Positions 6,369 through 21,922 of a stretch of DNA of 32,000 nucleotides are shown in pieces. Source of the stretch: an uncultured Actinomycetota bacterium (lineage in GTDB: Bacteria; Actinomycetota; Actinomycetes; Propionibacteriales; Nocardioidaceae); the NCBI GenBank assembly GCA_963816325.1, contig CAWFKC010000003.1:19643-51642 (forward strand), read 5' to 3'. The first letter of the stretch is position 1, and the number at the start of each line of letters is the position of its first letter. Made by a program: the position numbers and the translations under genes. The notes under the pieces are model-generated. The model saw only the letters and a list, made by a program, of their open reading frames with translations, had not been told where the DNA came from and searched no databases.

Positions 6369-6473
6369 TCAGGCCCGGGTGCGGGCTAGATCCGCCATGA
6401 TGTAGTCGATCATCAGCGCAACCAGCGACGCTGCGGACAGGCTCAGCAGTGCGGCCCTGGGCTTCTTTCCCAT
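6369..6473 (-). CDS. Putative 34-aa small membrane protein
   Basis: Below the track length cutoff and read by hand: GAGGAGGA, a 4-nt spacer (CACC), then ATG, encoding MGKKPRAALLSLSAASLVALMIDYIMADLARTRA*. It has a basic N-terminus plus one TM-length hydrophobic stretch, and GC3 is about 80%. There is no homology evidence. Confidence 0.4.
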   Translation of the reverse strand: MGKKPRAALLSLSAASLVALMIDYIMADLARTRA

Positions 6474-6699
6474 GGTGTCCTCCTCGAGGATCTGCCGGGG
6501 TGGCCTCTCCACCCACGCGGAGTGCGCCCGTGCCCCGGATCACAGGTCCTAAACGGGGCCCCGGAAAGTCGCGCGCTGCTGGTCCACCCGGCGGGCCGAC
6601 TGTGAGCCGGGGCCCGCCGACGGGTAACTTCGCACCCGTCCGGTGCGCGGGCCTGCGCCCGCCCGGATGGCCGGGACGACAAGGGGTAATGAGGACAGC

Positions 6700-9225
6700 A
6701 TGGTGGCAACCGGTAGCGAGCACGTCGACCGCGGACCGTGGCGGGACGACGACTCGCAGGTGCCGCACCGGGTGCTGGTGCTCTCCGCCGACATGGGCGG
6801 CGGCCACAACGCCACCGCGAACGCCCTCGAGGAGGCCGTGGCCCGCCTGTGGCCCAAGGCCGAGGTGCGCCGCCTCGACTCGCTCGACGTCATGGGGCCC
6901 GGCATCGGCCCCCTGTTCCGCATGATCTACGTCGGCAACGTGGAGACCACGCCCTGGCTCTACGAGTTCTTCTACTCCAGCCTCTGGCGCAAGCGCTGGT
7001 TCGCCCGCGCCTCCAAGCGGTTCACCGGCAGCTGGTGCGGCCGGATGCTGAGGTCGCACCTCGAGGCGTTCGACCCGACGGTGATCGTCTCGACGTACCC
7101 CCTCGGCACCTCCGGGCTGGAGTGGTTGCGCCGGCACCGGGGACTCGCGGTGCCGGTCGGCGCCTGGATCTCCGACTTCGCGCCCCACCCGTTCTGGGTC
7201 TACGCCGGGATCGACGCGAACTTCGTGATGCACGAGGCCGCGCTCCCGGTGGCGCGGGCCGCGGAGCCGCGCGCCCGCGTGGAAGTGTGCGCCCCGCCGG
7301 TGGTGTCGAGGTTCCGCCCCGGCGACCCGGCGGCAGCCCGCCTCCGACTCGGCCTGCGGGCCGACGCCTTCGTCGTGCTGCTCTCCTCCGGCTCCTACGC
7401 CTTCGGCGACGTCGCGACCACGGTCCGGGCGCTGGTCGCGGCCGGCGACCAGGTCCAGGTCGTCGCCGCCTGCGGCAGGAACGCCGAGGTCAAGCGGGCG
7501 CTGGAGCAGATGGGGCTGCCTCGCGAATCCCTGGTCGCCCAGGGCTGGACCGACGACATGGCCGGCCTCGTGCAGGCCGCCGACGTGGTGCTCACCAACG
7601 CCGGCGGGGCCACCGCCCTGGAGGCGCTGGCGTGCGGCGTGCCGGTGCTCACAGCCTGCCCGATCGCCGCCCATGGCCAGGCCAACGCCGACCTGATGAC
7701 GGTGGCGGGACTGACCGAGCTGTGCGCGGACCACGAGCGCCTGACCGCGTTCGTGCGCGCCGCGGTCCGGGACCGCTCGGTGCTCGAACCGCTGCGCCGC
7801 CGCATCCGCGCCCACAACGACGCCCACGACCTCGAGAGCGGCCTGCGCCGGCTGGCGTACGTCGGGACCGGGCCGGGCTCGCCCCCGCAGGTGGACCGGC
7901 CGTGGCGGGCGCGCTCCGCCGACTCGTTCTTCGGACAGGTGGAGACCGCCGCGGTGCCGCAGGAGCTGGGCGCCGTGCTCGAGCTGGGCCGGCAGCACGG
8001 AGCCTCGCTGGCCGTCGAGGAGCTGCGCCGCGCGCTCGCGCCGCGGATCCCCGGGCTGCCTCCGGCCCGCCGCGAGCTGGTGCGTGGCCGCCGGCTCGGT
8101 TGGCGGCTGCACGGCTCCGCCGACGTCGAGGTGCACGTCCAGGAAGAGGTCGTCGACCCCGGCGCCCCGGAGAGCGCGGTGTGGGACGCGGTCGGCGACT
8201 TCTGGTCCCGGACGCTGCCCGAGGGCCGACCCTCGTGGGAGATGCTGCTGGTGCGCGGCCGCGCGCACGGTCCGGACCTGTTCGCGGTCAAGATGCACCA
8301 CTGCCAGGCCGACGGGATCTCCGCCCTCGGCCTCCTGGACCGGCTGCTGGACCCCGAGCCGGGCGACCGGCTCGTGGAGCGTCGCTCGGTCGCCTCGTCG
8401 GTGACGAAGCGGATGCGCAGTCGCTACCCGCTGATGGTGGCGCGCGGCCTGCTCGCCCTGGCCGGCCGCGGTCTGGCTCCGGCGCACCGGCTCAACGGCA
8501 GCCACGGCCGCGCCGACCGCGACTTCGTCGGCGTGCCGCTGCCGTGGTCGGAGGTGCGCCGGCTCGCCGGCGAGCTCGACCTGCGCCCCCACGAGCTGGT
8601 GATCGCCCTGGTCTCCGACGCCTTGGACCGGCTGCTGCGCCCGGCCGGGCTGCTGACCGCCGGCGCCTCGGGCAGCCGCCCGCTGCGCGCGATGGTGCCG
8701 GTCGCCATGCGGCCGGCGAGACTGGACCGGGTCGCGTTCAACTGGACCGGTTCGCTGGCCGTGGACCTGCCCACCGGGCCGATGCCGTTCCCCGAGCGCG
8801 CCCGGGTGGTCCGCGACGAGCTGCACCGCCGGGCCGGTCGCGGTGAGGCGCCCGCGGCGTCCGCGGTGATGGCCGTCGCCGGCCGGCTTCCCGCGGCCGT
8901 GCACCGCCGGGTGGCGCGCAGCGTCTACACCAGCAAGTTCTTCAACACCGTGGTGAGCTACATGCCGTCCGCACGCGGCCCGCGCAGCCTGGCCGGGGCT
9001 CCGGTGGAGGTGGTCTACCCGGTCCTCCCGCTGGCCCCGCGCGTGCCCCTGACCATCGGCGTGGTGGTCTCCGGAGGCGCGGTGGGCACCGGCATCCTGC
9101 TCGACCGCAGCCTCGGGGTGCGGCGCGAGGACGTGGAGGACGCCGTACGCTCCGCGTTCGCCGACGCCGGCGGGCGGCTGCCGGACCTCGCCGAACCACC
9201 GCAGGTCGTGGGCGGCGAGCCGTGA
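6700..9225 (+). CDS. Fusion protein: MGDG-synthase/UgtP-like GT28 glycosyltransferase (N-terminal) joined to a WS/DGAT acyltransferase (C-terminal)
   Basis: Within track ORF 6643..9225 I prefer ATG 6700 (GGGGTAATGAGGA upstream), giving 841 aa. GT half: VLVLSADMGGGHNATANALEEAV and NAGGATALEALACGVPVL...HGQANADL. WS/DGAT half, from about nt 7945: ADSFFGQVE, catalytic HHCQADG at 8296-8316, and FNTVVSYMPSARGPRSLAGAPVEVVYPV. No stop or frameshift separates the halves. Confidence 0.85.
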   Translation: MVATGSEHVDRGPWRDDDSQVPHRVLVLSADMGGGHNATANALEEAVARLWPKAEVRRLDSLDVMGPGIGPLFRMIYVGNVETTPWLYEFFYSSLWRKRWFARASKRFTGSWCGRMLRSHLEAFDPTVIVSTYPLGTSGLEWLRRHRGLAVPVGAWISDFAPHPFWVYAGIDANFVMHEAALPVARAAEPRARVEVCAPPVVSRFRPGDPAAARLRLGLRADAFVVLLSSGSYAFGDVATTVRALVAAGDQVQVVAACGRNAEVKRALEQMGLPRESLVAQGWTDDMAGLVQAADVVLTNAGGATALEALACGVPVLTACPIAAHGQANADLMTVAGLTELCADHERLTAFVRAAVRDRSVLEPLRRRIRAHNDAHDLESGLRRLAYVGTGPGSPPQVDRPWRARSADSFFGQVETAAVPQELGAVLELGRQHGASLAVEELRRALAPRIPGLPPARRELVRGRRLGWRLHGSADVEVHVQEEVVDPGAPESAVWDAVGDFWSRTLPEGRPSWEMLLVRGRAHGPDLFAVKMHHCQADGISALGLLDRLLDPEPGDRLVERRSVASSVTKRMRSRYPLMVARGLLALAGRGLAPAHRLNGSHGRADRDFVGVPLPWSEVRRLAGELDLRPHELVIALVSDALDRLLRPAGLLTAGASGSRPLRAMVPVAMRPARLDRVAFNWTGSLAVDLPTGPMPFPERARVVRDELHRRAGRGEAPAASAVMAVAGRLPAAVHRRVARSVYTSKFFNTVVSYMPSARGPRSLAGAPVEVVYPVLPLAPRVPLTIGVVVSGGAVGTGILLDRSLGVRREDVEDAVRSAFADAGGRLPDLAEPPQVVGGEP

Positions 9226-10130
9226 TCCCAGGTTTCCTCGTCGCCGTCCCGGCCGCGGTGGCCGCGGCCGCCGCCTTCGGGGGCGCCGGGGTCCTGCAGC
9301 ACCGCGCCACCCACCAGGCGCCGGACCGGCCGGCGCTCAGTCCCCGGCTGCTCCTCGACCTGATCAAGCTCAACGCGTTCCGCTCCGGCGTGATCCTCGG
9401 CGGTCTCGGCTTCCTGCTGCAGGTGGTGGCGCTGCGCTTCGGGCCGCTCGGCCTGGTGCAGCCCCTGCTGGTCACCGGTGTGCTCTTCTACCTGGTCTTC
9501 GGCGCCGCCTACGCGCACCGGCACGTCGACCGCGGGCTGGTCGCGGGCACGCTGATGGCGATCGCGGGGCTGACCGCGTTCCTCGTGGTCAGCCGCCCGG
9601 TGCCCGGTCACGGCGAGTTCGGCTCGGCCGCCGCGCTGCCGCTGGGCGTCGGGCTGATCGGCGTGGTGGTGCTCTGCCTGCTGGTGGCCAGCCGGGTCCC
9701 ACCGGCGATGCGGTCGGTGCCGCTGGCGGTGGCCACCGCGGTGTTCTACGGCGTCACCGCCGGGCTGGTGCGCAGCGTCACCGAGGGTGGGATCGGCTGG
9801 CAGGCGCTCCACCAGTGGGAGCTCTACGCGCTGGTCGTGGTCGGACCCACCGGGTTCCTGCTGAACCAGAACGCCTTCCAGCAGGGCAACGTCGGTGCGC
9901 TGGCACTCGGCACGATCACCGTGGGCGACCCGCTGGTGGCGATCGGCATCGGCGTGGCGTGGTTCGGCGAGGTCATCTCGACCGGGCCGTGGCACATCCT
10001 CGGCGAGATCCTGGCGCTCGCGGTCATGGTCGGCGGGGTCTTCCTGCTCGCCGCCCGCGCCCAGCGGCTCACCGAGCGGATGGAGGCGCAGCGCCCCGTG
10101 CCGCCCGGCATGTGCGGGGCCACCCCGTGA
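9222..10130 (+). CDS. Polytopic membrane protein (about 9-10 TM), DMT-superfamily-like
   Basis: 302 aa. The GTG start overlaps the upstream stop (GTGA 9222-9225). Hydrophobic segments of TM length are evenly spaced (FLVAVPAAVAAAAAFGGAGVL, GVILGGLGFLLQVVAL, LVQPLLVTGVLFYLVFGAAY ...). The family assignment is tentative. Confidence 0.7.
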   Translation: MIPGFLVAVPAAVAAAAAFGGAGVLQHRATHQAPDRPALSPRLLLDLIKLNAFRSGVILGGLGFLLQVVALRFGPLGLVQPLLVTGVLFYLVFGAAYAHRHVDRGLVAGTLMAIAGLTAFLVVSRPVPGHGEFGSAAALPLGVGLIGVVVLCLLVASRVPPAMRSVPLAVATAVFYGVTAGLVRSVTEGGIGWQALHQWELYALVVVGPTGFLLNQNAFQQGNVGALALGTITVGDPLVAIGIGVAWFGEVISTGPWHILGEILALAVMVGGVFLLAARAQRLTERMEAQRPVPPGMCGATP

Positions 10131-10879
10131 CCGTCCTGCGCGAGGCGTCGGTCCTGCTCACCGGCGCCTCCTCCGGCATCGGCCGCGCCGCCGCCGTCGC
10201 GCTGGCCGGCAAGGGCGCCCGGGTGACGCTGACCGGCCGGGACCGCGAGCGGCTGGAGCGGCTGGCGGCCGAGGTCGGCGGGCGGGCGGTCCCCGCCGAC
10301 CTCGCCGACCCTGCCGACACCGACCGGCTCGCCGAGGCCGTGCTCGCCGACGGGGTCCCCGACGCGGTGGTGCACAACGCCGGCGTCGGCCACGTCGGGG
10401 CCGCCGAGGCCACCGGCCCGGCCACCCTGGAACGGCTGGTCCGCGTCAACCTCGCCTCGGCGGTGCAGCTGACCCAGGCGCTGCTGCCCGGCATGCGCGC
10501 CCGCGGCGGCGGCCACCTGGTGTTCGTGACCTCGATCGCGGCCCACCTGGGCGTGCCCGGGGAGTCGGCCTACGCGGCGACGAAGGCGGCCCTGGCGGTC
10601 TATGCCGCGAGCCTGCGCAGCGAGCTCTGCGGTGCCGGGATCCGGGTCACCGAGGTGGCGCCCGGCATCGTCGACACCGAGTTCTTCGCCCGCCGCGGCG
10701 CGCCGTACGAGCGCCGCTTCCCGCGGCCGATGCCGGCGGCGAGGGTGGCCGACCGGCTGGTCGACGCGCTGGAGCGCGACCGGGCCGAGGTCGTGGTCCC
10801 GGCATGGCTGCGGCTCCCCATCGCGCTGAGGTCAGTGGCTCCGAACCTCTACGCGCGGATGGAGAGCCGCTGGGGCTGA
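10127..10879 (+). CDS. Classical short-chain dehydrogenase/reductase (SDR)
   Basis: Track ORF 9815..10879 is over-extended. The GTG at 10127 overlaps the upstream stop (GTGA), giving 250 aa. Motifs are VLLTGASSGIGRAAA (TGxxxGxG), HNAGV (NAG) and S...YAATKAAL (catalytic Ser-Tyr-Lys). Confidence 0.88.
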   Translation: MTVLREASVLLTGASSGIGRAAAVALAGKGARVTLTGRDRERLERLAAEVGGRAVPADLADPADTDRLAEAVLADGVPDAVVHNAGVGHVGAAEATGPATLERLVRVNLASAVQLTQALLPGMRARGGGHLVFVTSIAAHLGVPGESAYAATKAALAVYAASLRSELCGAGIRVTEVAPGIVDTEFFARRGAPYERRFPRPMPAARVADRLVDALERDRAEVVVPAWLRLPIALRSVAPNLYARMESRWG

Positions 10880-10903
10880 GCCCCTGTGCTCGACCGGCTC
10901 AGC
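10875..10903. terminator. Hairpin shared by the convergent SDR and hpnH 3' ends
   Basis: GCTGAGCC (10875-10882) pairs with GGCTCAGC (10896-10903) across a 13-nt loop. The two arms contain the two stop codons (TGA 10877-10879; TCA 10899-10901 on the plus strand). There is no U-tract, so a terminator role is only plausible. Confidence 0.35.
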
Positions 10904-11909
10904 TGCCGGCGGCCGCCCGGATGGTCTCCTTCAGCGAGCCCATCGTGGCCATCACGGCGGTCGGCTCGTAGCCGCAGTGCGCCATGCAGTTGCCGCAGCG
11001 CGGGTCCTTGCCGCGCCCGTAGGCGTCCCAGTCGGTGGTCTCGACGAGCTCCTGGTAGGTGGAGGCGTAGCCGTCCTCCATCAGGTAGCACGGCTTCTGC
11101 CACCCGAACAGCGAGTAGCTCGGGATGCCCCAGGCGGTGCAGCCGAAGTCGACCTTGCCCTCGAGGAAGTCCAGGAACAGCGGCGAGTGGTTGAGGCGCC
11201 ACTTCTTGCGGTTCCCGCCGGCGAACGCCTTGCTGAACAGCTCGCGGGTCTCGGCCACGCCCGGGAAGTGGTCCTGGTCGGGAGCCTTCTCGTAGGCGTA
11301 GGCCGGGGAGATCTGCATGTTGTCGACACCGAGCTCGTCGTTGCAGAAGTTCAGCACGTCGATGATGTTCTGCGGCGTGTCGTTGCTGAAGAAGGTGGAG
11401 TTGGTGTTGACCCGGAAGCCCTTCTCCTTCAGGAACTTGATCGCCTCGACTGCCTCGTCGAAGACGCCCTCCTGGCAGACCGACTCGTCGTGGCGCTCCT
11501 TGAGCCCGTCGAGGTGGATCATGAACGACAGGTACGGCGAGGGCTTGAAGTCGAACTTGTCCCACCACTTGCGGATCAGCATGGCGTTGGAGCACAGGAA
11601 GACGTACTTCTTGCGCTTGACCAGCTCGTTGACGAGCTTGTCGATCTCGGGGTGCATCAGGGGCTCGCCGCCGGCGATGGAGACCATCGGCGCACCGCAC
11701 TCCTCCATCGCGTCGAGCGCCTGCTGGACCGGCATCCGCCGGCGCAGCTCGTCGGCGGGGTGCTGGATCTTCCCGCAGCCCGCGCACTGCAGGTTGCAGG
11801 CGAACAACGGCTCGAGCTCGACGAGCAGCGGGAACTTGTCCCGCTTCTTGAGCTTCTGCTTCATCAAGTAGGCCCCGATGGCGAGGGACTGGCGTACGGG
11901 CATGCTCAT
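10899..11909 (-). CDS. hpnH: Adenosyl-hopene transferase, radical SAM (HpnH)
   Basis: 336 aa. It has the radical-SAM CNLQCAGCGK motif and extended HpnH-typical sequence (FPLLVELEPLFACNLQCAGCGKIQHP, SIAGGEPLMHPEI, FRVNTNSTFF, CTAWGIPSYSLFGWQKPCYLM, CGNCMAHCGYEP). The ATG overlaps the upstream stop (ATGA 11906-11909). Confidence 0.95.
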   Translation of the reverse strand: MSMPVRQSLAIGAYLMKQKLKKRDKFPLLVELEPLFACNLQCAGCGKIQHPADELRRRMPVQQALDAMEECGAPMVSIAGGEPLMHPEIDKLVNELVKRKKYVFLCSNAMLIRKWWDKFDFKPSPYLSFMIHLDGLKERHDESVCQEGVFDEAVEAIKFLKEKGFRVNTNSTFFSNDTPQNIIDVLNFCNDELGVDNMQISPAYAYEKAPDQDHFPGVAETRELFSKAFAGGNRKKWRLNHSPLFLDFLEGKVDFGCTAWGIPSYSLFGWQKPCYLMEDGYASTYQELVETTDWDAYGRGKDPRCGNCMAHCGYEPTAVMATMGSLKETIRAAAGS

Positions 11910-13414
11910 GCGGTGCGTACCTCCTTGGGTAGCGTGAATTTCACGTTCTCGGTGACCACCTCGCGGTTTCGGCTGCGCACCGGGCCCAGCCCCGCCAGCG
12001 CGTCGACCACGTCGTCGACCAGCGCCTGGGGAGCGGACGCCCCCGCGGTGATTCCTACTGTCTTCGCCCCCACCAGCCAGGAGAGGTCCACCTCGTGCAC
12101 GTCGTCGACGAGGTAGGCCGGCTTCCCGAGACGGGTTGCCGTCTCGACGAGCCGCTGGCTGTTGGAGGAGTTCTGCGACCCGATCACCAGCACCAGGTCG
12201 GAGTCCACCGCCACCGCGCTGAGCGCGTCCTGGCGGTTGGTGGTGGCGTAGCAGATGTCGTCGGTGGGCGGCGCCTGCAGCTTCGGGAACCGCGCACGCA
12301 GCGCCTCGACGACGCCCTCGACCTCGTGCGCCGACAGCGTGGTCTGCACGAGGTAGGAGACCCGCTCGGGGTCCTCCACCTCGACGTGCGCCACGTCCTC
12401 GGCGGTCTCCACGAGCACCGTGCGGTCGGGCCGCTCCCCCATCGTGCCCTCGGTCTCCTCATGGCCGGCATGGCCGATGAACACGATGGTGTCGCCGCGG
12501 TCGCCGAACCGGCGGACCTCGGTGTGCACCTTGCTGACCAGGGGGCAGGTGGCGTCGATGATGTCGAGGCTGCGGCGCTGGCCGTCCTCCCACACCTGGG
12601 GGGCGACGCCGTGCGCCGAGAAGACCACGGTGGCGCCCGGGGGCACCTCCGCCAGCTCCTCGACGAAGACCGCGCCGCGCTCCTGCAGGTCGTGCACCAC
12701 ATGCTGGTTGTGCACGATCTGCTTGCGGACATAGACCGGCGCACCGCGCTGCTCGAGCGCGCGCTCCACCACCTGGATCGCCCGCTCCACCCCGGCGCAG
12801 AACGACCGCGGCCCGGCCAGCAGCACCTCGCGCGGTGCTACCGCGTCCGCCCAGGCGAGCAGCGTGGGCGCGACCTCGCTGAGGCCGCGGAGCGCGGTGC
12901 GCATCCGGCCGACGGTGGCCGGGGTGAACAGCGGCTCGGCGGAGGTGTCGGCGACCACCCGCACCACCAGGCTCGGCCGCTTGCCGTCGAGCAGCCAGGC
13001 CGACTCCATGTCCACGGCCAGCGCCCCGGTGGCCGCCAGCGCCTCACGCGAAGCACCGCTGACCACCTTGGCGGCGCTGGTGACCGGACCGACCCAGACC
13101 CGGTGGCCCGCGCGGCGCAGCGCGGCGGCCGCGAGCGGCGCCCCCGGCACCGGGACCGCGGTCCCGTCGGGCCCGCGGACCTCGTCGGCCACCACCACGT
13201 CGCCCGGCTGGAGCCGCGCGTCGAGGGCGCCGGCGAGGCCGACGACGGCCACCGCGTCCGCGTCCTGCAGGCGCGCGCTCTGCGCGGCCCGGACGGAGCG
13301 TTTCTGGCCCATGCCGGTGCGCACGACGCTGCGCTCGGGGAGCGCGGGGGCGCCCCTGCGCAGAGCGCGTTCCTCCATGCGCATCGGAGTGCAGAAAACC
13401 ACGTTCGGTCTCAT
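11906..13414 (-). CDS. hpnG-ispH: Fusion protein: HpnG-like hopanoid-associated nucleosidase/phosphorylase (N-terminal, about aa 1-194) joined to IspH (C-terminal, about aa 195-502)
   Basis: Track ORF 11906..14902 is over-extended. ATG 13414 has a GGAAGGAG Shine-Dalgarno and an ATGA overlap with the shc stop, giving 502 aa. The N-terminal part is PNP_UDP_1-like (AVAVVGLAGALD, ALAVDMESAWL). The C-terminal part is a complete IspH ([50 protein letters not shown]). No stop lies between the domains. Confidence 0.88.
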   Translation of the reverse strand: MRPNVVFCTPMRMEERALRRGAPALPERSVVRTGMGQKRSVRAAQSARLQDADAVAVVGLAGALDARLQPGDVVVADEVRGPDGTAVPVPGAPLAAAALRRAGHRVWVGPVTSAAKVVSGASREALAATGALAVDMESAWLLDGKRPSLVVRVVADTSAEPLFTPATVGRMRTALRGLSEVAPTLLAWADAVAPREVLLAGPRSFCAGVERAIQVVERALEQRGAPVYVRKQIVHNQHVVHDLQERGAVFVEELAEVPPGATVVFSAHGVAPQVWEDGQRRSLDIIDATCPLVSKVHTEVRRFGDRGDTIVFIGHAGHEETEGTMGERPDRTVLVETAEDVAHVEVEDPERVSYLVQTTLSAHEVEGVVEALRARFPKLQAPPTDDICYATTNRQDALSAVAVDSDLVLVIGSQNSSNSQRLVETATRLGKPAYLVDDVHEVDLSWLVGAKTVGITAGASAPQALVDDVVDALAGLGPVRSRNREVVTENVKFTLPKEVRTA

Positions 13415-15312
13415 GTGCGGCTCCTTCCCAGGACGCGCCCCAAGGCGCTGATGGGGAACACGACTCGGTAGAGGTGGTAGGCGATGTAGAAGTCGCCGGG
13501 AAAGCCGGTGCCGGTGAACTGCGGCTCGTCCCAGCCGCCGTCCTCCCGCTGGTGGTCCACCAGCCACTGGACCCCGCGCGCCACCTCGCCGGTCTCCGTC
13601 TCGCCGGCCGCGTGCAGCGCGAGCAGCGCCCACGCGGTCTGCGACGGGGTCGACTCGCCGCGACCGCGCCAGGCGTCGTCCTCGTAGGACCTCAGGTCCT
13701 CGCCCCAGCCGCCGTCGTCGTTCTGGTGCCGGCGCAGCCAGTCCACGGCCCGCCGGATCGCGGGGTGGCTGCCCGGGATCCCGACCTCGACGAGGGCGGG
13801 AACCGCGGCACCGGTGCCGTAGACGTGGTTGGCGCCCCAGCGCCCGAACCAGGAGCCGTCGTCCTCCTGCTGGTCGAGCAGGTAGACCACGCCTCGTCGT
13901 ACGGCGTCGGAGTCGGCCATCCCCTCGCGGGCCAGCGACTCCACCACGTGGGCGGTGACGTCCGCGCTCGGCGGGTCGATGACCGCTCCGAAGTCGCAGA
14001 ACGGCAGCTTGTAGGCGATCTCGCGGGTGTTGTCGACGTCGAAGGCGCCCCAGCCGTCGTTGCCGGACTGCATGTCGACCAGCCACCGGACCGCGCGCCG
14101 CACCGCCGCGTCGGTGTCGGCGCCGGGGGCGCAGCGCCGCAGCGCCATGATCACCTCGGCGGTGTCGTCGGTGTCGGGGTAGAGGTCGTTGTCGAACTCG
14201 AAGGCCCACCCGGCGGCGGGGGTGTCCGGGCGCTTGACCGCCCAGTCGCCCTTGACGCGGATCTCCTCGCGCAGGAGGTAGTCGCGGGCCTGCGCCATCG
14301 CCGGGTGGTCGGGCTCGAGGCCGGCGTCGCCGAGCGCGACGGTGGCCAGCGCGGTGTCCCACACCGGCGACTGGCAGGCCTCGATCCAGCGCACCGGCCC
14401 CTCGGCGGACTGCTCGACGACGGTGAAGCGCTCCCAGCCCTCGATGCCGCGGGCCAGCACCGGGTGGTCCAGCGGGTAGCCGTAGGCGTGCAGCGCCATC
14501 AGCGAGTAGACCCACGGCGGCTGGATGCCGCCCCAGCAGCCGTCGGCCTCCTGCCGCTCGACCACCCAGTCGGCCATCTTGCGCAGCGCCTTGGTGCGCA
14601 GCGCCTTGACCGGCCGGCGCTCGTAGGCGTGCAGCGCCTTGTCGAGCCCGACGAACGCGCGCGCGAGCAGGTCGCGCTCCCGGGTGGAGGCGGCGGGCCG
14701 GCCGGTACGCAGCTCGTCGATGTCGACACCGAGGTCGCGGCGAGGGCGCAGCGCGGAGAGCATCGTGAGGGGGCCGACGGTCTGGCGGGCCCAGCAGGCG
14801 AAGTCGTAGAGGTTCAGCGGGACCTGCGGCGGCAGGAACACCAGCTCCGGCGGCAGCGCGGGCACGTCGTCCCAGGACCACTGGCCGAACAGCGCCAGCC
14901 ACATCTTGGTGAAGACCCGGAGCCCCTCGAGGCCGCCGGCGGCGAGCACCACCTCACGGGCCCGGCGCATGTGCGGCGCGTCGGGCGAGTCCCCGGCCAG
15001 CTTCAGGGCGATGTAGGCCTCGGCGGTCGTCGACGCGTCGGCCGGGCCGCCGTGGTAGATCGCCCAGGACCCGTCCTCGCGCTGGTGGCGCCGGATCCAG
15101 CGGGCGGTGGCCTGGGTCTGCTCCTCGGTGCGGATGCCGAGGAACTGACGCATCATCAGGTCCTCGGCGTCCATCGTCACGTTGGTCTCCAGGACGCCGC
15201 GCCAGTAGCCCTCGGCGTCCTGCCGGCCGAGCAGGTGCTGCACGGCCCGGTCCAGGGTCGCGTCCGCCTCGGGCACGTCGACGCACAGGTCTTCGCGCTC
15301 GGCAAGCGCCAT
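13411..15312 (-). CDS. shc: Squalene-hopene cyclase
   Basis: Track ORF 13411..16002 is over-extended. ATG 15312 (MALAEREDLCVD...) gives 633 aa. It has the DxDDTA motif (YPDTDDTAEV), multiple QW-type repeats (QREDGSW, QEADGCWGG, QSGNDGWG, QEDDGSWFGRWG, QNDDGGWG, QREDGGW) and GWAFEF. Confidence 0.96.
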   Translation of the reverse strand: MALAEREDLCVDVPEADATLDRAVQHLLGRQDAEGYWRGVLETNVTMDAEDLMMRQFLGIRTEEQTQATARWIRRHQREDGSWAIYHGGPADASTTAEAYIALKLAGDSPDAPHMRRAREVVLAAGGLEGLRVFTKMWLALFGQWSWDDVPALPPELVFLPPQVPLNLYDFACWARQTVGPLTMLSALRPRRDLGVDIDELRTGRPAASTRERDLLARAFVGLDKALHAYERRPVKALRTKALRKMADWVVERQEADGCWGGIQPPWVYSLMALHAYGYPLDHPVLARGIEGWERFTVVEQSAEGPVRWIEACQSPVWDTALATVALGDAGLEPDHPAMAQARDYLLREEIRVKGDWAVKRPDTPAAGWAFEFDNDLYPDTDDTAEVIMALRRCAPGADTDAAVRRAVRWLVDMQSGNDGWGAFDVDNTREIAYKLPFCDFGAVIDPPSADVTAHVVESLAREGMADSDAVRRGVVYLLDQQEDDGSWFGRWGANHVYGTGAAVPALVEVGIPGSHPAIRRAVDWLRRHQNDDGGWGEDLRSYEDDAWRGRGESTPSQTAWALLALHAAGETETGEVARGVQWLVDHQREDGGWDEPQFTGTGFPGDFYIAYHLYRVVFPISALGRVLGRSRT

Positions 15313-16328
15313 CAGTAGTCCCTTCCGCTCAACTTGTGGGTCAGCTTGGTGAGGTCCTCGTGGACGTCGGCGGGAAGGCCGAGCCCGTCGAGGATCCGCA
15401 GTGCCGCCTCGGACTCCCGTCGTACGGCGTCCTCGGCCCAGGACTTGCCGCCGGCCACCTCGATCAGGCGGGCCACCTCGGCCAGGTCGTCCTCGGACCA
15501 GGGCTCCTCGGCGGCGTACCTCTCGGCCAGCCGCTGCGCCTCCGGAGTGCCGGACGTCAGCGCGGCCACCACCGGAAGCGACTTCTTGCGCGCCCGCAGG
15601 TCGGACCAGACCGGCTTGCCGGTGCGCTCGGGAGCGCCCCAGATGCCGAGTAGGTCGTCGACGAGCTGGAAGGCCAGGCCGAGGTGCATGCCGTAGTCGG
15701 CCAGCCCCAGCGCGAGCGCGGCCGGGGCGTCGACCAGCACGGCACCGAGCGAGGCGGCGCACGCCAGCAGGGCGCCGGTCTTGCCCTCGGCCATCGCGAC
15801 GCACTCCTCGAGGCTGACCTCCTGGCGCGACTCGAAGGCCAGGTCCTCGGTCTGCCCCGCGATCAGCCTGCGGGTGCAGGCGTTGAGGCAGCGGATCGCC
15901 CAGGCGGTGGTCGGACCGCTGGTCTCGGCCAGGATCTCGTTGGCCAGCGCCAGCAGCGCGTCGCCGGCGAGGATCGCCGAGGAGGTGCCGAACGCCGACC
16001 ACGCGGTCGGCCGGTGCCGCCGCTCCTCGTCGCCGTCCATCACGTCGTCGTGCAGCAGCGAGAAGTTGTGCACCAGCTCCGCGGCCACCGCGGCGGGGAC
16101 GCCCGCCTCGGCGGGTGCACCGGCCGCGCGGGCGGACAGCACGGCGAGCACCGAGCGCACGCCCTTGCCGCCGCCGGCCCCGGGCTGCCCGTCGGCGTCC
16201 CAGTAGCCGAGGTGGTAGCCGCAGACGAACGCCGTGCGCTCGTCGAGGCGGTCCAGGGCAGCGCGCATCGACGGCTCGACGAGCTCGCGGGTGCGCTGCC
16301 AGATGTCCTGGCTGACGGTCTCGGTCAT
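15312..16328 (-). CDS. Polyprenyl diphosphate synthase (FPP/GGPP synthase family; hopD-type)
   Basis: ATG 16328 (MTETVSQDIWQ...) gives 338 aa. The first Asp-rich motif is LLHDDVMDGDEERRHRP and the second is FQLVDDLLG. The position between hpnE and shc matches my recollection of the Streptomyces hop cluster. Confidence 0.9.
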   Translation of the reverse strand: MTETVSQDIWQRTRELVEPSMRAALDRLDERTAFVCGYHLGYWDADGQPGAGGGKGVRSVLAVLSARAAGAPAEAGVPAAVAAELVHNFSLLHDDVMDGDEERRHRPTAWSAFGTSSAILAGDALLALANEILAETSGPTTAWAIRCLNACTRRLIAGQTEDLAFESRQEVSLEECVAMAEGKTGALLACAASLGAVLVDAPAALALGLADYGMHLGLAFQLVDDLLGIWGAPERTGKPVWSDLRARKKSLPVVAALTSGTPEAQRLAERYAAEEPWSEDDLAEVARLIEVAGGKSWAEDAVRRESEAALRILDGLGLPADVHEDLTKLTHKLSGRDY

Positions 16329-17686
16329 GGCGTCCTCACGATCTGGTGCTGGTCGGAGGTGTGGCCCGGGCCGCCGACCATGCCGCCGGCCATGAGACCA
16401 CTGCGGACAGCGCCCTCCATCGTGTCGGGCCACCCGGTGTCGGTCCAGGCGCCGGCCAGCACGAACCCGGGCCAGCGGGTCGCCGGTCCCGGCCGCAGCG
16501 CCCGGCTGCCGGCACGCTGCTCGAAGGTCGCCCGCGGCTCGCGGGTGACCCAGCTGTCGACGACGTTGGCCTGCGCCGCGGCCGGAAGCAGCGCGGCCAG
16601 CCCTCTCAGCTGCGTGTCCCGCAGGTCGGCGTTGACCTGGCCGAGCAGCGGGTTGGCGGCCGAGACCGACACGGTGAGGTACTGGCCGTCGACGCCCGCC
16701 GCGGCGGTCCGGTCGAAGAACCAGGGCACCGGCGACTCGATCGCGGCCGCGAACGGCAGGTCGGTCACGCGCCGGTCGTAGCGGACGTGCACGTTGTAGA
16801 TCGCCGACGCGCCCAGGCCGGCCCACCGGTCGCGGTCCGGGCAGGCTTCCGCGGGAGCGAGCTGGGCCGCCTGCTGGTGGGGGACGGCGAGCACCACGGT
16901 CGCGGCCTCGACGTCGCCGTCGGCGGTGCGCACGACGTAGCCCTCGTCGAGCCGAGCGATCTCCTGCACCTTGCGTCCGACGTGCCACTCGATGCCGACG
17001 CGGTCGAGCAGCGCGCCGGTGGCGGTGTGGTGGATCTCGGAGAGCGGCACCTGAGCCACGCCGATGTCGCCGGCGTCGGCCTCCTCGAGCAGGCCGACCC
17101 GGAACACCATCGCGGCCAGGGCCAGGGAGGCCTCGTCCACGCCGATGTTGAGCGCCGCGATCGTGACCAGGCTCCACAGGTTGGCCAGCGCCCGCTCGGT
17201 CTGCCCGTGCGCCCGCAGCCAGTGGCCGAAGGTCTCCTCGTCGGTGCGCGGGTCGGTGTAGTCGACCTTGCGCAGCGCGGTCATCGCCGTGGCCGCGCGG
17301 ACCCGCTCGAGCGGGCTCAGCGCGGTGTAGCGGGCCAGCGCCACACCGAGGTGCAGGGGTGCCGGGGTGTGCGGCGTACGGCGCAGGTGCAGCACGGAGC
17401 CGCCGGGGCGCACCACCGGGATGTCCATGCGCTCCTGCACCGGGACCAGCGAGTCGACGCCGAGCCGGCGCAGCAGCGCGCGGTAGCCGGTGTAGCACCG
17501 CAGCAGCACGTGCTGGCCGGTGTCGGCGGGGTGCCCGTCGCGCGCGAAGGAGTAGACCGCTCCCCCGAGACGCGGCCGTCCCTCCAGCAGCGTGACGGCC
17601 CAGCCCTGGTCGGCCAGCGTCAGCGCGGCGCTGGTGCCGGCCAGTCCGCCGCCCACCACCACGGCACGGTTGCCGGTCGCGGTCAT
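16325..17686 (-). CDS. hpnE: Hydroxysqualene dehydroxylase (FAD amine-oxidase/phytoene-desaturase family)
   Basis: ATG 17686 gives 453 aa. It has an FAD dinucleotide fold (AVVVGGGLAGTSAALTLADQGWAVTLLEGRPRLGG) and a C-terminal GFVLAGAWTDTGWPDTMEGAVRSG. It sits after hpnC/hpnD, with ATGA overlaps at both ends. Confidence 0.88.
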   Translation of the reverse strand: MTATGNRAVVVGGGLAGTSAALTLADQGWAVTLLEGRPRLGGAVYSFARDGHPADTGQHVLLRCYTGYRALLRRLGVDSLVPVQERMDIPVVRPGGSVLHLRRTPHTPAPLHLGVALARYTALSPLERVRAATAMTALRKVDYTDPRTDEETFGHWLRAHGQTERALANLWSLVTIAALNIGVDEASLALAAMVFRVGLLEEADAGDIGVAQVPLSEIHHTATGALLDRVGIEWHVGRKVQEIARLDEGYVVRTADGDVEAATVVLAVPHQQAAQLAPAEACPDRDRWAGLGASAIYNVHVRYDRRVTDLPFAAAIESPVPWFFDRTAAAGVDGQYLTVSVSAANPLLGQVNADLRDTQLRGLAALLPAAAQANVVDSWVTREPRATFEQRAGSRALRPGPATRWPGFVLAGAWTDTGWPDTMEGAVRSGLMAGGMVGGPGHTSDQHQIVRTP

Positions 17687-18540
17687 ACGGTCCCCCTCGC
17701 CAGCGCGCGGGCGGCCACCCGGAGCTTGTCGGGGGTGCTCAGCGAGACCCGGGTGTCGCGGATCCGCTCGGGGTCGGCGGCGATCTGGTCGAGCAGCCGG
17801 CGGTAGATGCCCGCCATCGCGGCGGTGCAGGCCGCGCTGCGCCGGTCGAGCAGCGGCAGCAGCTGCAGCCCCTCGTCGTACCAGCGCGCCGCCCGCTCGG
17901 CCTCGAAGCGCACCAGCGCGGCGAGGTTGGCCGGCGGGTCCACGAGCCGGCCGCGGGAGTCGACGTCGAGCGTGCACTCGAAGCGCTTGAGGTCCTCCTC
18001 CGGTAGGTAGATGCGACCGTTGACCCGGTCCTCGCGCACGTCGCGCAGGATGTTGGTCAGCTGCAGGGCCACCCCGAGGGAGTCGGCCAGGCCCCAGGCA
18101 CGGTCGAGCCGCGGCGGGGAGTAGACGCCCACGGAGAGCCGGCCCACGGAGCCGGCGACCCAGCGGCAGTAGCCGACCAGGTCGTCGAAGGTGCCGTAGC
18201 GGTGCACGGTCACGTCCGCGCGGCAGCCGGAGACGATCTCGTCGAAACCCTCGAGCGGCACCGGGAAGCGCTCCAGCACGTCGGCGAGCGCCTGCACGAC
18301 CGGGTCCTGCGAGGCCGGGTCGAGCGGGTGCAGCTGCTTCTGGACCTCGTCGAGGCCGGCGAGCTTCTCCTCGTCGGGCAGGTCGCCGTCGCCGATGTCG
18401 TCGATGCGCCGGGCCATCGCGTAGATCGCCGACAGCGCCTGCCGCTTCGCGGTCGGCAGCAGCCGGATGCCGTAGGAGAAGTTGCGGGCCTCGCTGCGGG
18501 TGATGGCCTCGCAGACGGCGTAGGCGGTCTCGAGCTTCAT
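17683..18540 (-). CDS. hpnD: Presqualene diphosphate synthase (squalene/phytoene synthase family)
   Basis: ATG 18540 gives 285 aa: YAVCEAITRSEARNFSYGIRLLPTAKRQALSAIYAMARRIDDIGD, YCRWVAGSVG, LQLTNILRDVREDRVNGRIYLP. The hpnC versus hpnD assignment rests on gene order and N-terminal motifs. Confidence 0.85.
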   Translation of the reverse strand: MKLETAYAVCEAITRSEARNFSYGIRLLPTAKRQALSAIYAMARRIDDIGDGDLPDEEKLAGLDEVQKQLHPLDPASQDPVVQALADVLERFPVPLEGFDEIVSGCRADVTVHRYGTFDDLVGYCRWVAGSVGRLSVGVYSPPRLDRAWGLADSLGVALQLTNILRDVREDRVNGRIYLPEEDLKRFECTLDVDSRGRLVDPPANLAALVRFEAERAARWYDEGLQLLPLLDRRSAACTAAMAGIYRRLLDQIAADPERIRDTRVSLSTPDKLRVAARALARGTV

Positions 18541-19367
18541 CCGGGCCTCCTCACCGACGCGGCGACAAGCGCGCCGAGGATCTCCCGGGAGGTGGGCTTG
18601 GGCACCCCCGCCAGCGTGTCGTAGCCGTGGCGCTTGATCCCGGCGGCGGCGGCGCGGCCACCGCTGATGTAGCCGGAGACCGCGAGGCGTGCCCAGCCGT
18701 GCAGCAGCGGCACCAGGAACGCGCCGGCGTCGATCCAGGCCAGGGCCCGGTCGGTCTCGAAGCCGACGAGGTCGACCAGCTCCGCACTCGCCCGCGGGGC
18801 GGCCAGCATCTCCTCGGTGACACCGAAGGCGCGCATGTCCTCCTGGGGGAGGTAGATCCGCCCGTCGCGGTAGTCCTCGGCGAGGTCCTGCCAGTGCTCG
18901 ACGAGCTGCAGCCCGGTGCAGACCCGGTCCGAGAGCGCGATCCGGTCGGGGTCGGCCGCGCCGAAGAGGTAGAGCACGATCTCGCCGACCGGGTTGGCCG
19001 AGAGCGCGCAGTAGCCGAGCAGGTCCTCGAAGGTCGGGTAGCGGGTGACGTGCTGGTCCTGGAGGTTGGCCTCGACCAGTCGCAGCCACGGGTCGGCGGG
19101 CACACCGGAGGCCTCGACCAGGGGAGCCAGGTCGCGGACCACCTCCAGGCGCGCGCCCCGTCCGTCGTACAGGCTGCGGACGTCGTCGGCGACGTCTCGC
19201 AGCGCGCGCTCGCGGTCACCGGTCGACTCGTCGCCGAGGTCGTCGACGTAGCGCGCGTAGCGGTAGAGAGCGAGCAGGTCGCGGCGCACCCCGGCCGGCA
19301 GGATCCGCATCTGGACCGGGAAGTTCTCGTGGTGCGCCTTCTGCTCGAGCAGCTCGGCCTGGGTCAC
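18537..19367 (-). CDS. hpnC: Hydroxysqualene synthase (squalene/phytoene synthase family)
   Basis: 276 aa. The GTG start overlaps the dxs stop (GTGA). Motifs are [47 protein letters not shown] and [22 protein letters not shown]. Confidence 0.85.
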
Positions 19368-21232
19368 GAGGCACCTCCGCGACCCTGCACGAGACGGAGC
19401 CGGCGGGACGGACCGGACAGCTGGCCGCAGACCTCCTTCACGTAGGTCGCGATCCCGTGACCGTCCAGGCCGAACCGGGTGAGCAGCTCGGCGCGCGAGC
19501 CGTGCGGCAGGAACTGCGTCGGCAGGCCCAGCGGGCGCACCGGCACGTCGAGGCCCGCGTCGGCTGCCGCGAGCGCGATCCGGCTGCCCACACCGCCGTC
19601 ACGGACGCCGTCCTCGACGGTCACGACGAGACGGTGCCGGGCGACGAGGTCGAGCACGCCCTGGCTCGGCGGGTGCACCCAGCGCGGGTCGGCCACGGTG
19701 CACTCGACACCGAGGTCGGCGAGGATGCCGGCCGCCTCCAACGCCGCCGGGGCGAGTGCGCCCACACTGAGCAGCAGCACGTCCGCCGATTCGTGCCGGC
19801 GCAGGACGTCCACGCCGTCGCGGCGCTCGACCGCGTCGATCGGCGCGCCGAGGGCGGCCTTGGGGAACCGCAGGGTGGTCGGGCCGTCGTCGACCGCGAC
19901 CGCCTCGGCCAGCTCCTCCTCCAGCGTGGCGGCGTCGCGCGGGGCGGCGATCCGCATGCCGGGGACGATGCCGAGCATGGCCAGGTCCCACATGCCGTGG
20001 TGGCTCGGGCCGTCCGGCCCGGTGATGCCGGCCCGGTCGAGGACCAGCGTGACCGGCTGGCGGTGCAGGCCGACGTCCATCATGGTCTGGTCGAAGGCGC
20101 GGTTGGCGAACGTCGCGTAGACCGCGACCACCGGGTGGCGTCCGCCCATCGCGAGCGCGGCCGCGGAGGTGAGCGCGTGCTGCTCGGCGATGCCCACGTC
20201 GAAGCAACGGTCCGGGTAGCGGTCGGCGAACTTCTGCAGGCCGGTCGGGCCGAGCATCGCCGCGCTGATCGCGACCACCTCGGGACGGGTCTCCCCGAGC
20301 CCGACGAGCGCATCGGAGAACGCGTGCGTCCAGGTGGGCCGCGGCGCCGCGGACGGCTTGCCGGTCTCGCGCTCCACAACCCCGACGCTGTGGAAGTGGT
20401 CGGCCTCGTCCTGCTCGGCGGGAGCGTAGCCTCGGCCCTTCTCGGTCAGGGCGTGCACCACCACCGGCCCGGAGCAGCCGCGGGCCTGCCGCAGCACGTC
20501 GTCGAGCGCGTCGAGGTCGTGGCCGTCGACCGGGCCGAGGTAGCCGAAGCCGAGCTCGGCGAAGACGCCCTCCGTGGAGACCGGCTGCTCCTCGTGGCGC
20601 ACGGGCGCGCCGCCGAGCAGGTCCTGGACGGCGGCGTAGCCGCTGCGGTCGCGCAGCCGGGCCAGGTGCTGGGCGAGTCCGCCGATGGTCGGCGAGTAGG
20701 AGCGGCCGTTGTCGTTGAGCACCACGACGACGCGACGGTCGGAGCGACCGAGGTTGTTCAGCGCCTCCCAGGACAGCCCTCCCGTCAGCGCCCCGTCTCC
20801 GACCACCACGACCACGCAGCGGTCCCGCTCCCCGGCCAGGGTGAACGACTTGGCCAGCCCGTCGGCGTAGGCAAGGGCCGTGGAGGCGTGGGAGTTCTCG
20901 ACCACGTCGTGCACCGACTCGGCGCGGCTGGGGTACCCGGAGAGACCGTCGGCCTTGCGGAGTGCGGTGAAGCCGTCCTTCCGGCCGGTGAGCATCTTGT
21001 GGACGTAGGACTGGTGGCCGGTGTCGAAGACGATGGGGTCGTGGGGCGAGTCGAAGACCCGGTGCAGGGCCAGGGTCAGCTCGACGACGCCGAGGTTGGG
21101 TCCGAGATGCCCGCCCGTGCGGCAGACCGACGCCACCAGCCGCTCGCGCAGCTCGGCGGCGGCCCGCCGAAGGTCGACGGGAGCCAGCAGGCGCAGGTCC
21201 GCCGGGCTGCCGATGTTGTCCAGGACGTTCAT
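19364..21232 (-). CDS. dxs: 1-deoxy-D-xylulose-5-phosphate synthase (first gene of the hopanoid operon)
   Basis: 622 aa: [45 protein letters not shown], ThDP-binding GDGALTGG...LNDNG, and DVGIAEQHA. Confidence 0.95.
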
Positions 21233-21342: not shown

Positions 21343-21825
21343 TTACCCTCGTCCGCGCTCCTCATTCACTCCCTCGGACAGAAAGTCGCCGAACTCCTGC
21401 GACAGGTTCCCGAGGAACTCCGGCGAGATCCGCAACTGTTCGGCGATGCGCTCGAGCTGCTCGAGATGGACCTCCGAGAGCCGGGCGATCACGTCGCGGC
21501 CCTTGTCGGTCAGCTGCACTCGGACGCGGCGATGATCGGCGGGGTCGACGTACCGGGAGACCAGACCGAGTGCCATCACCCGGTTGGCCAGCTCGACGGC
21601 GCTGTGGTGCCGGATCAGCAGGTAGTGAGAGATGTCCCCGACGCTCGGCGGCTCCGGGCCCGGGTGCGCGCGGACGGCGAGCAGGAACTGGTGCTGCTGA
21701 GAGGTGAGCCCCAGCGCCGAGGACTGTTCGCCGCTCCAGCGCTGGAAGTTCCGCAGGGCGCAGTGGAAGATCAGCATGATCTGGTACTGCTCCTCGGTGG
21801 GCTCGGCCATTCCACTCCGTTCCAT
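21343..21825 (-). CDS. MarR-family transcriptional regulator
   Basis: 160 aa, or 155 aa if the second ATG at 21810 is used (it has the better GGAG spacing). The winged-helix region is [12 protein letters not shown]...[51 protein letters not shown]. It lies directly upstream of dxs on the same strand. Confidence 0.85.
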
Positions 21826-21922
21826 CCCGGCGCCGGTTACCTTGGGAGCACCCGCACCGTCCCCGTCGCCTCACGTGAAGGGCCCCCACGTGCCCCACCC
21901 GCCGAGCCTTCAAACCGTCCGC

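Follow-up and report, generated by a model that had tools for sequence, protein, structure and literature searches.

A three-gene cassette abutting the hopanoid operon of an uncultured Nocardioidaceae bacterium: a candidate system for lipid or hopanoid tailoring and export

The genome of an uncultured actinobacterium (Actinomycetota; Propionibacteriales; Nocardioidaceae; assembly GCA_963816325.1) carries, directly beside its hopanoid biosynthesis (hop) operon, a three-gene cassette for a fusion of a GT28-type glycosyltransferase with a wax ester synthase/diacylglycerol acyltransferase (WS/DGAT)-like domain, a membrane protein of the drug/metabolite transporter (DMT) family, and a short-chain dehydrogenase/reductase (SDR). 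The cassette was analysed within a stretch of 32,000 nucleotides (contig CAWFKC010000003.1, positions 19,643 to 51,642 of the forward strand; hereafter, the window), which has about 73% GC content and is actinobacterial in character. Judged by sequence comparison, it is a genuine and conserved set of hop-associated genes, not described previously, that draws on known enzyme families, and it is kept beside hpnH through repeated rearrangement. We lean, with modest confidence, towards the reading that the cassette tailors and flips the extended (C35) hopanoids that are made by the adjacent shc-hpnG::ispH-hpnH genes. The features of the cassette are as follows.

6474..6699, plus strand: upstream intergenic region, with a ribosome-binding site (RBS; GAGGA) at 6691-6695
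6700..9225, plus strand: GT28 (MGDG-synthase/UgtP-like)::WS/DGAT-like fusion, 841 aa, start ATG 6700 (Pfam, NCBIfam)
9222..10130, plus strand: DMT-family polytopic membrane protein, 302 aa (NF038012)
10127..10879, plus strand: classical SDR, 250 aa, stop TGA 10877-10879 (adh_short)
10866..10914, no strand: hairpin over both convergent stop codons (folding), lacking a U-tract

The first-pass annotation had described GTGA start/stop overlaps chaining the three genes, and these are present at 9222-9225 and 10127-10130; the genes are translationally coupled. The cassette likewise ends, as had been described, 19 bp (10880-10898) from the convergent hpnH, the stop codon of which lies at 10899-10901 on the minus strand. 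The shared hairpin reported at this junction, with 8-bp arms GCTGAGCC/GGCTCAGC (10875-10882 and 10896-10903), exists inside the longer stem 10866-10914 (dG -37.3 kcal/mol; z = -2.4; 6 of 200 shuffled sequences equally stable), which is a candidate bidirectional terminator. No sigma-70 consensus promoter was found upstream of the cassette, and one terminator-like site was predicted within the fusion gene, by scans that are uninformative for an actinobacterium of such GC content; a search for an operator motif common to the upstream regions of the cassette and of the hop operon with its MarR-family regulator gene returned one shared 9-mer only, which is unconvincing.

Linkage of the cassette to hopanoid genes

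One genome per species was scanned; 255 species encode the fusion, and 80 loci of these were compared by tblastn with the proteins of the window, a locus being counted as linked when hop genes (hpnH/shc) lie within 10 kb (individual loci are cited by L numbers). Hop genes were found within this distance in 56 of the 80 species loci; about 8 of the other 24 have flanks too short to be informative, which leaves 56 of about 72 (78%). The first-pass annotation had read the module, from its position, as a lipid or hopanoid tailoring/export system, a reading that hung on whether the fusion stays adjacent to shc/hpnH across Actinobacteria or occurs mostly in genomes lacking shc. It stays adjacent in most informative loci, and genomes lacking shc are therefore not its main home; the positional reading is thus supported by linkage that survives rearrangement.

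The linked loci span at least six orders, namely Propionibacteriales (Nocardioidaceae, Actinopolymorpha, Microlunatus), Micrococcales (Arthrobacter terrae and other Micrococcaceae, Intrasporangium, Dermatophilaceae, Amnibacterium), Micromonosporales (Micromonospora), Pseudonocardiales (Pseudonocardiaceae: Amycolatopsis, Saccharopolyspora, Halosaccharopolyspora, Gandjariella), Mycobacteriales (one Mycobacteriaceae metagenome-assembled genome, MAG) and Nanopelagicales. They show at least five gene arrangements, two of which are co-directional with hpnH. The canonical arrangement, fusion-DMT-SDR convergent on hpnH, is found in 34 loci; in the Micromonospora type (11 loci), fusion-SDR is convergent on hpnH, with a PAP2 gene and the DMT gene in a divergent operon upstream; and in the Amycolatopsis type (4 loci), hpnC is followed by a PucR regulator, then by SDR-DUF3159 on the hop strand and a divergent DMT-fusion pair. 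Two loci (L044 and L049) read hpnG::ispH-hpnH-fusion-SDR and look operonic because these genes lie on one strand with short gaps, and L038 and L048 show further differing arrangements. On the opposite flank, unbiased clustering of all locus open reading frames (ORFs) detected nothing conserved, the largest other family being present in 11 loci.

By simple arithmetic, chance placement within 10 kb of an operon of about 11 kb in a genome of 5-10 Mb is expected in well under 1% of cases, as against the 78% observed; the loci are not phylogenetically independent, and shared ancestry inflates the raw linkage count. Selection for the linkage is argued because several independent rearrangements have kept it. 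Conservation beside shc/hpnH across taxa, as observed for the cassette, is also the microsynteny property by which hpnL, hpnM, hpnS and hpnT were defined, the only genes that were reported in a 2025-26 survey of shc neighbourhoods (10.1101/2025.07.29.667474).

Of the cassette components, it is the SDR that follows hop linkage. It is present in 55 of 56 hop-linked and in 8 of 16 informative hop-unlinked fusion loci (Fisher test, p about 1e-5, computed on near-identical provisional counts and uncorrected for phylogeny), and the same pattern recurs inside the Micromonosporaceae, in which neither the SDR nor hop genes are present in L036 and L045. A reciprocal scan covered 80 metagenome loci with HpnH 74-84% identical to that of the window, all with shc-hpnG::ispH-hpnH; in none of these 80 does the SDR stand beside hpnH without a WS/DGAT. 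The conserved core is the pair of a WS/DGAT domain fused to a variable partner (X::WS/DGAT) and the DMT protein, which is retained also in hop-unlinked contexts; the DMT gene accompanies X::WS/DGAT in almost every locus, the PAP2-fused variants below included.

Variant cassettes were also found. Three metagenome loci (L118, L144 and L145) have the SDR and the acyltransferase half only. L144 (8619-10217, minus strand) and L145 encode an intact WS/DGAT behind a decayed GT28 remnant ('PDLVLSTHSSTTAGLDWLRRHRG'), with the SDR beside hpnH and no DMT gene; that these loci keep WS/DGAT and SDR with a mere remnant of the glycosyltransferase suggests that the latter half is dispensable in some lineages. 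L118 (2560-7755) encodes a WS/DGAT fused to a PAP2_3 membrane domain, then a GT4 glycosyltransferase, then an LPG_synthase_TM protein, and the SDR beside hpnH. The layout is the same in Jatrophihabitans sp. DSM 45814 (complete genome; L163, 9126-14896), where the hop operon hpnC-hpnD-hpnE-pps-shc-hpnG::ispH-hpnH is met by a convergent SDR, followed by PAP2_3::WS/DGAT-GT4-LPG_synthase_TM. A set of reductase, WS/DGAT, glycosyltransferase and polytopic membrane protein has thus come together on two occasions beside hpnH, the components being unrelated in part. The PAP2_3::WS/DGAT family (107 matches) comprises Jatrophihabitans, Frankia, Parafrankia, Acidothermus, Actinomadura and Spirillospora.

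A stand-alone PAP2 gene occurs in all 12 Micromonospora loci (e.g. L167 of Micromonospora rubida, 7158-9893), in which PAP2 and a second EamA-like protein share an operon with the DMT gene, divergent from the fusion. The recurring PAP2 could fit the supply of diacylglycerol (DAG) from phosphatidate or, equally, the dephosphorylation of phosphoribosylhopane; the usual outward-facing topology of PAP2 enzymes is a problem for both readings alike.

Many related cassette-less hop operons (L108, L125, L130, L133, L143 and others) carry other genes directly after hpnH, comprising PMT_2/GT-C membrane glycosyltransferase (14 loci), MacB/FtsX-type ABC permease (21 loci) and its ATPase (12 loci) genes; a PLP-dependent decarboxylase gene follows hpnH in L093, L104 and L109, and in L095-L098 only a distant NIPA/DMT-like protein is encoded convergent on hpnH. 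Because different genes follow hpnH elsewhere, actinobacterial hop operons appear to have a variable tailoring/transport region at their 3' end.

As a separate observation, two contigs from 'Candidatus Melainabacteria' MAGs (L070, L071) carry a Pseudonocardiaceae-like cassette together with a hop operon of actinobacterial type; these contigs are probably mislabelled or misbinned.

Predicted enzymes and membrane protein

In the fusion protein, the glycosyltransferase domain comprises about residues 21-373 (nt 6760-7818) and the acyltransferase domain about residues 403-839 (nt 7906-9216). The former matches the Pfam families MGDG_synth (PF06925; 45.2 bits, gathering threshold 25) and Glyco_tran_28_C (PF04101; 32 versus 22 bits), and the latter WS_DGAT_cat (65.6 versus 23.6 bits) and WS_DGAT_C (39.9 versus 20.7 bits). 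The fusion scores 166.8 bits against NCBIfam TIGR02946, which represents the canonical wax ester/triacylglycerol (TAG) synthases, below the cutoff of 309.95, and 114.8 bits against the diglucosyl-DAG synthase equivalog PRK13609, for which the cutoff of 500 is not reached. On these scores, the fused acyltransferase is a divergent subfamily and not a canonical WS/DGAT. Its similarity to the PAP2-fused domains (32% identity, E 6e-36) also exceeds that to the separate canonical WS/DGAT of the window (26% identity with 70 gap positions, i.e. an internal segment is absent).

The nearest solved relatives by sequence are UgtP (9wde; a processive DAG glucosyltransferase, E 2.8e-22), the plant monogalactosyldiacylglycerol (MGDG) synthase MGD1 (4wyi), and the WS/DGATs of Marinobacter and Acinetobacter. 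In the alignment to these PDB sequences, SADMGGGHNATA stands opposite SDTGGGHRASA of MGD1 and TANYGNGHVQVA of UgtP (the GGGH loop with the catalytic His), HHCQADG (the HHxxxDG motif) is aligned to HHSLVDG and HHAMVDG of 6chj and 7nxg, and the C-terminal nucleotide-sugar motif T-K-[AP]-G-x-x-T-x-x-E is represented by TNAGGATALEA, aligned to TKAGPGTIAEA. Among 53 homologs (45-85% identity), G33/G35/H36, E308 and H533/H534/D538/G539 are invariant, as are the Gly residues of TNAGGATALEA.

The AlphaFold2 (AF2) model of the fusion has a pLDDT of 89 and a pTM of 0.88, and Foldseek matched it to 6chj (E 1.8e-23), 7nxg and 4x1t, each with a TMt of about 0.76. Taken with the invariant residues, the model suggests that both halves are catalytically competent and rigidly associated, a fixed two-domain architecture being suggested because the pTM is high. 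The fusion family comprises 445 proteins at E <= 1e-10; nearly all of the best 120 of these 445 matches span both halves in full, apart from a few partial sequences, and they carry generic names only.

The membrane protein matches NCBIfam NF038012 ('DMT family transporter', DMT_1) with 98.7 bits (cutoff 50) over 267 of 276 profile positions; Pfam EamA gives 19.1 bits for a single repeat, under the gathering threshold of 28.2. Its hydropathy profile has 9-10 segments, corresponding to about 10 helices, and the AF2 model has a pLDDT of 90.4; no sequence or structural match to solved transporters was detectable. By analogy, it is proposed as a putative lipid flippase or exporter.

The SDR matches Pfam adh_short with 148.9 bits, and its translation contains the classical motifs TGASSGIG, HNAG, TSIAA (Ser) and YAATK. 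The stretch after beta2 reads 'VTLTGRDRERL', in which 'TGRDRERL' presumably corresponds to the 'ATGRRQERL' pattern of the NADP-dependent YdfG; the SDR is, from this motif, probably NADP(H)-dependent.

Proposed function, known systems and competing explanations

In the proposed pathway, the SDR would use NADPH to form bacteriohopanetetrol (BHT) from the HpnG product, ribosylhopane, by reducing its open-chain aldehyde form; the WS/DGAT half would esterify a side-chain hydroxyl with acyl-CoA at the cytoplasmic face, and the GT28 half would glycosylate the side chain at its glycerol-like end, with a UDP-sugar as the donor. This would yield an acyl-glycosyl-BHT, the hopanoid counterpart of MGDG or of an acylated steryl glycoside, and the DMT protein would flip or export this bulky compound to the outer leaflet. 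We infer every substrate and product in this scheme. The most economical role of the SDR would be to convert the HpnG product to the alcohol for the acyltransferase, because the SDR tracks the co-occurrence of WS/DGAT and hop genes. A DAG-type glycosyltransferase fused to a DAG-type acyltransferase would make sense because the terminal triol of BHT resembles glycerol and acylated BHT resembles diacylglycerol, the acceptor of GT28 MGDG synthases; and a bulky amphiphilic product would need flipping because UDP-sugar, acyl-CoA and NADPH are all cytoplasmic. By analogy, the flipping slot would be filled by the DMT protein here and by an MprF/HpnL-type protein in the Frankiales version.

In a 2026 review, the conversion of ribosylhopane to BHT is 'predicted nonenzymatic', and HpnG is described as a phosphorylase homolog for which the expected product, phosphoribohopane, was never observed (PMC13459092); a genome survey of 2025-26 concluded that Actinomycetota make ribosylhopane and lack downstream hopanoid-modifying enzymes (10.1101/2025.07.29.667474). 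The SDR is a candidate for the reductase that is missing between ribosylhopane and BHT. A role as the universal, general BHT-forming reductase was rejected, because the cassette is carried by only about 12 of the 80 related metagenome hop operons, and most of these operons thus lack the SDR. The reading in its full extent, i.e. that the SDR is the missing NADPH enzyme from ribosylhopane to BHT, that the fusion makes a new class of acyl-glycosyl-BHT and that the DMT protein flips it outward, is rather unlikely to hold in all its parts; in such a lipid, the hopane and the one acyl chain would be two 'tails' and the sugar would be the head group, in mimicry of MGDG.

None of the known side-chain tailoring genes hpnI/J/K/O/P or the exporter HpnN had been seen in the window by the first-pass annotation, and this stands: in a Pfam/NCBIfam scan of candidate ORFs taken from those of at least 200 aa, with smaller ORFs covered less than exhaustively, domains of the HpnI/J/K/O/P/R/N type (GT2, YdjC, B12-radical SAM, class-III aminotransferase, MMPL) were unmatched. 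The Hpn models of NCBIfam also did not match the three cassette proteins, and in the same scan the HpnH and HpnG controls were matched. Like the cassette, HpnI/HpnK/HpnJ (BHT-glucosamine, cyclitol-ether) and HpnO (aminotriol) are encoded by accessory genes clustered with hpnH/hpnG; they modify the C35 polyol side chain, as is proposed for the cassette, and include a BHT glycosyltransferase. The enzyme families differ (HpnI, GT2; HpnK, YdjC-like; HpnJ, B12-radical SAM; HpnO, aminotransferase), no acyltransferase or SDR belongs to these sets, and they are known mostly from Pseudomonadota, Acidobacteriota and Cyanobacteria, whereas the cassette of the window is actinobacterial. Streptomyces coelicolor without hpnO (orf18) reportedly accumulates ribosylhopane and BHT (Liu et al. 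2014). No paper joining hopanoids with WS/DGAT or MGDG-synthase-type enzymes was found by full-text literature search, and neither the fusion nor the cassette was found described in such searches, which also covered acylated bacteriohopanepolyol (BHP) glycosides.

UgtP (YpfP) of Bacillus/Staphylococcus and plant MGD1 share with the fusion PF06925 and PF04101, the GT-B fold (TMt 0.76 to 4x1t), the GGGH loop and the Glu of the C-terminal motif, and they act on a primary hydroxyl of a membrane lipid with a UDP-sugar, as is predicted for the fusion; the latter differs in its low identity (about 20%), in its T-K-x-G motif, in being fused to an acyltransferase, and in the proposed acceptor, a BHT-type polyol in place of DAG. 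The WS/DGATs (Acinetobacter AtfA, 7nxg; Marinobacter, 6chj; mycobacterial Tgs) share the HHxxxDG motif, the two-lobed condensation-like fold (TMt 0.76) and both Pfam domains; in contrast to these, the acyltransferase of the cassette family scores below the TIGR02946 cutoff, invariably occurs as a fusion with GT28 or PAP2_3, and is paired with a DMT gene. In the Acr1/AtfA pathway, an SDR-type acyl-CoA reductase makes a primary alcohol that the WS/DGAT esterifies; the cassette would follow a similar logic with a hopanoid sugar-aldehyde in place of fatty acyl-CoA as the proposed substrate, and the two systems are not orthologous at the sequence level. Acylated steryl glycosides (plant SGT plus acyltransferase; cholesteryl-acyl-glucoside of Helicobacter) share the proposed product class, i.e. 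polycyclic triterpenoid, sugar and acyl group; their enzymes are unrelated (GT1/GT4 and other acyltransferases), and the sterol is glycosylated at its C3 hydroxyl, not on a side chain. ArnE/ArnF (DMT/SMR-like) and the MprF flippase domain/HpnL (LPG_synthase_TM) are, like the DMT protein of the window, small polytopic proteins encoded beside an inner-leaflet lipid-modifying enzyme, and in the Jatrophihabitans-type cassette an LPG_synthase_TM protein, of the MprF/HpnL domain type, takes the slot of the DMT protein.

Frankia reportedly contains phenylacetate and propionate esters of BHT (Berry et al. 1993; Rosa-Putra et al. 2001, the latter as cited in PMC10301674), that is, acyl-BHT in an actinobacterium, and we know of no acyltransferase gene that has been assigned to these esters. 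Frankia and Parafrankia encode the PAP2_3::WS/DGAT relative; the GT28-type fusion has no Frankia match among the matches listed. The Frankiales PAP2_3/GT4/HpnL-like cassette is possibly a parallel version that is responsible for the BHT esters of Frankia.

Several observations weigh against a hopanoid role. The Lys of the T-K-x-G motif of MGD1/UgtP is Asn300 in the fusion, and this Asn is invariant among the homologs; NCBIfam and similarity searches gave no diagnostic match of the SDR to a characterised enzyme; the cassette, present in about 15% of the related metagenome hop operons, is accessory to them; and about 16 informative fusion loci, about a fifth, are not hop-adjacent (e.g. Actinopolymorpha alba and L082). 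Furthermore, PAP2_3::WS/DGAT is followed by a DMT homolog (28-30% identical to that of the window) in hop-unlinked, SDR-less loci of Actinomadura madurae, an Acidothermus MAG and a Streptosporangiaceae MAG, making three of five PAP2-type loci examined that lie away from hop genes, and an activity of the core pair that does not depend on hopanoids is therefore conceivable. Such an activity is at the centre of the alternative that the cassette synthesises an acylated glycosyl-glycerolipid (e.g. acyl-hexosyl-diacylglycerol from di- or monoacylglycerol) and exports it, its adjacency to hop genes reflecting co-regulation in membrane remodelling or co-transfer. It fits the origin of both fused domains from families that use diacylglycerol (UgtP, MGD1 and the WS/DGATs 6chj and 7nxg), and the recurrence of PAP2, fused in Frankiales and Streptosporangiales or separate in Micromonospora, which together with a DGAT would suit a route from phosphatidate via DAG to TAG. 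It leaves unexplained why the SDR follows hop linkage, why fusion and SDR were inserted co-directionally after hpnH (L044, L049), why the SDR adjoins hpnC in Amycolatopsis, and why an independent GT4/PAP2_3/LPG_synthase_TM cassette occupies the same spot at hpnH; adjacency that survives so many cross-order rearrangements would also be rare under pure co-regulation. The unrelated acylated glycolipid, which the first-pass annotation had rated equal to hopanoid decoration, is therefore weakened by the comparative linkage and is still viable as a minority possibility.

We regard it as improbable that the cassette serves the ordinary storage of TAG or wax esters, with the SDR as an accessory reductase that supplies fatty alcohol as in Acr1/AtfA. 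The intact HHxxxDG of the WS/DGAT domains would suit this, and the wax synthases of Acinetobacter are accompanied by SDR-type acyl-CoA/aldehyde reductases; the acyltransferase falls well short of the NCBIfam WS/DGAT cutoff, however, a canonical WS/DGAT is already encoded elsewhere in the window, the synthesis of storage lipids requires no fused glycosyltransferase and no coupled DMT protein, and the hop linkage would go unexplained. Inherited synteny or hitch-hiking that has no functional meaning draws some support from the non-independence of the loci, many of which come from related soil MAGs, and is very improbable given the number of orders and arrangements, the unconserved other flank, the distance from random expectation, and the convergence of a non-orthologous cassette on the same position.

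Neighbouring genes and biological meaning

The hop operon is encoded on the minus strand in the order dxs-hpnC-hpnD-hpnE-polyprenyl synthase-shc-hpnG::ispH-hpnH. Its genes and the other relevant features of the window are as follows.

10899..11909, minus strand: hpnH (adenosyl-hopene transferase), last hop gene (TIGR03470, 506 bits)
11906..13417, minus strand: hpnG::ispH fused ORF (PNP_UDP_1 and LytB; Pfam, translation)
13411..15330, minus strand: shc (squalene-hopene cyclase), start approximate (Pfam SQHop_cyclase_N/C)
15312..21232, minus strand: polyprenyl synthase, hpnE, hpnD, hpnC and dxs, internal boundaries approximate (Pfam)
21343-21870, minus strand: MarR-family regulator, directly upstream of dxs
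21704..22537, plus strand: DUF3159/VC0807-family membrane protein, divergent from the hop operon (Pfam; NCBIfam NF041646, 78 bits)
29905-31548, minus strand: stand-alone canonical WS/DGAT (WS_DGAT_cat, 242 bits)

The hpnG::ispH fusion is a single gene of 503-513 aa also in Jatrophihabitans and Micromonospora. The window also has a second, housekeeping ispH (1274 to about 2290, minus strand), which adjoins xseA and shares 57% identity with the copy in the hop operon; a 371-aa ORF on the opposite strand (orf1199, 1199-2314, plus strand) was considered as a novel gene and rejected as the antisense shadow of this ispH. Homologs of the DUF3159 protein were found by tblastn beside the module/hop operon in seven loci (L026, L039, L063, L072, L074, L078 and L079), and in Amycolatopsis the DUF3159 gene and the SDR gene share one operon; this (IspZ/YciB-like) protein is a possible further hopanoid-associated membrane protein and fourth member of the module. 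The AT-rich gap between the MarR gene and dxs (about 21270-21330) contains two copies of a ATTTGTATC...ACGAG-like element, which may be a candidate operator for the hop operon. PucR-family (HTH_30) regulators adjoin the cassette in distant lineages (L078, 6087-7283; L144, 10292-11563; L164, 13964-15141) and may be a dedicated regulator of the cassette.

With its separate canonical WS/DGAT, the organism has an ordinary TAG/wax synthase besides the fused one; the C-terminal tail of this protein is Lys/Ala-rich and histone-H1-like. Upstream of the module, a hydrophobic 34-aa ORF (MGKKPRAALLSLSAASLVALMIDYIMADLARTRA; 6372-6473, minus strand) with a strong GAGGAGGA RBS is divergent from the fusion gene and conserved (85%) only in the closest relative, L001. 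Further upstream, a TIGR03557-family F420-dependent LLM oxidoreductase is encoded (5226-6191, minus strand), which is probably not a member of the cassette, because it is kept at that place only in L001.

Extended hopanoids rank among the major membrane lipids of soil bacteria, and geohopane biomarkers derive from them. The cassette gives candidates for two gaps, i.e. the enzyme from ribosylhopane to BHT and the downstream modification of hopanoids in actinobacteria. Should the glycerolipid alternative hold, it would still represent an uncharacterised, widespread bifunctional glycosyltransferase::acyltransferase with a dedicated transporter. Should the hopanoid reading hold, the cassette would provide a hopanoid acyltransferase and a hopanoid glycosyltransferase from families not previously tied to hopanoids, and, for monoderms, in which HpnN is lacking, a candidate flippase of hopanoids. 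A separate hopanoid-tailoring pathway would then exist in Actinobacteria that are widespread in soil (Nocardioidaceae, Micromonospora, Amycolatopsis, Arthrobacter relatives), and it would predict new BHP structures that might be sought in soils.

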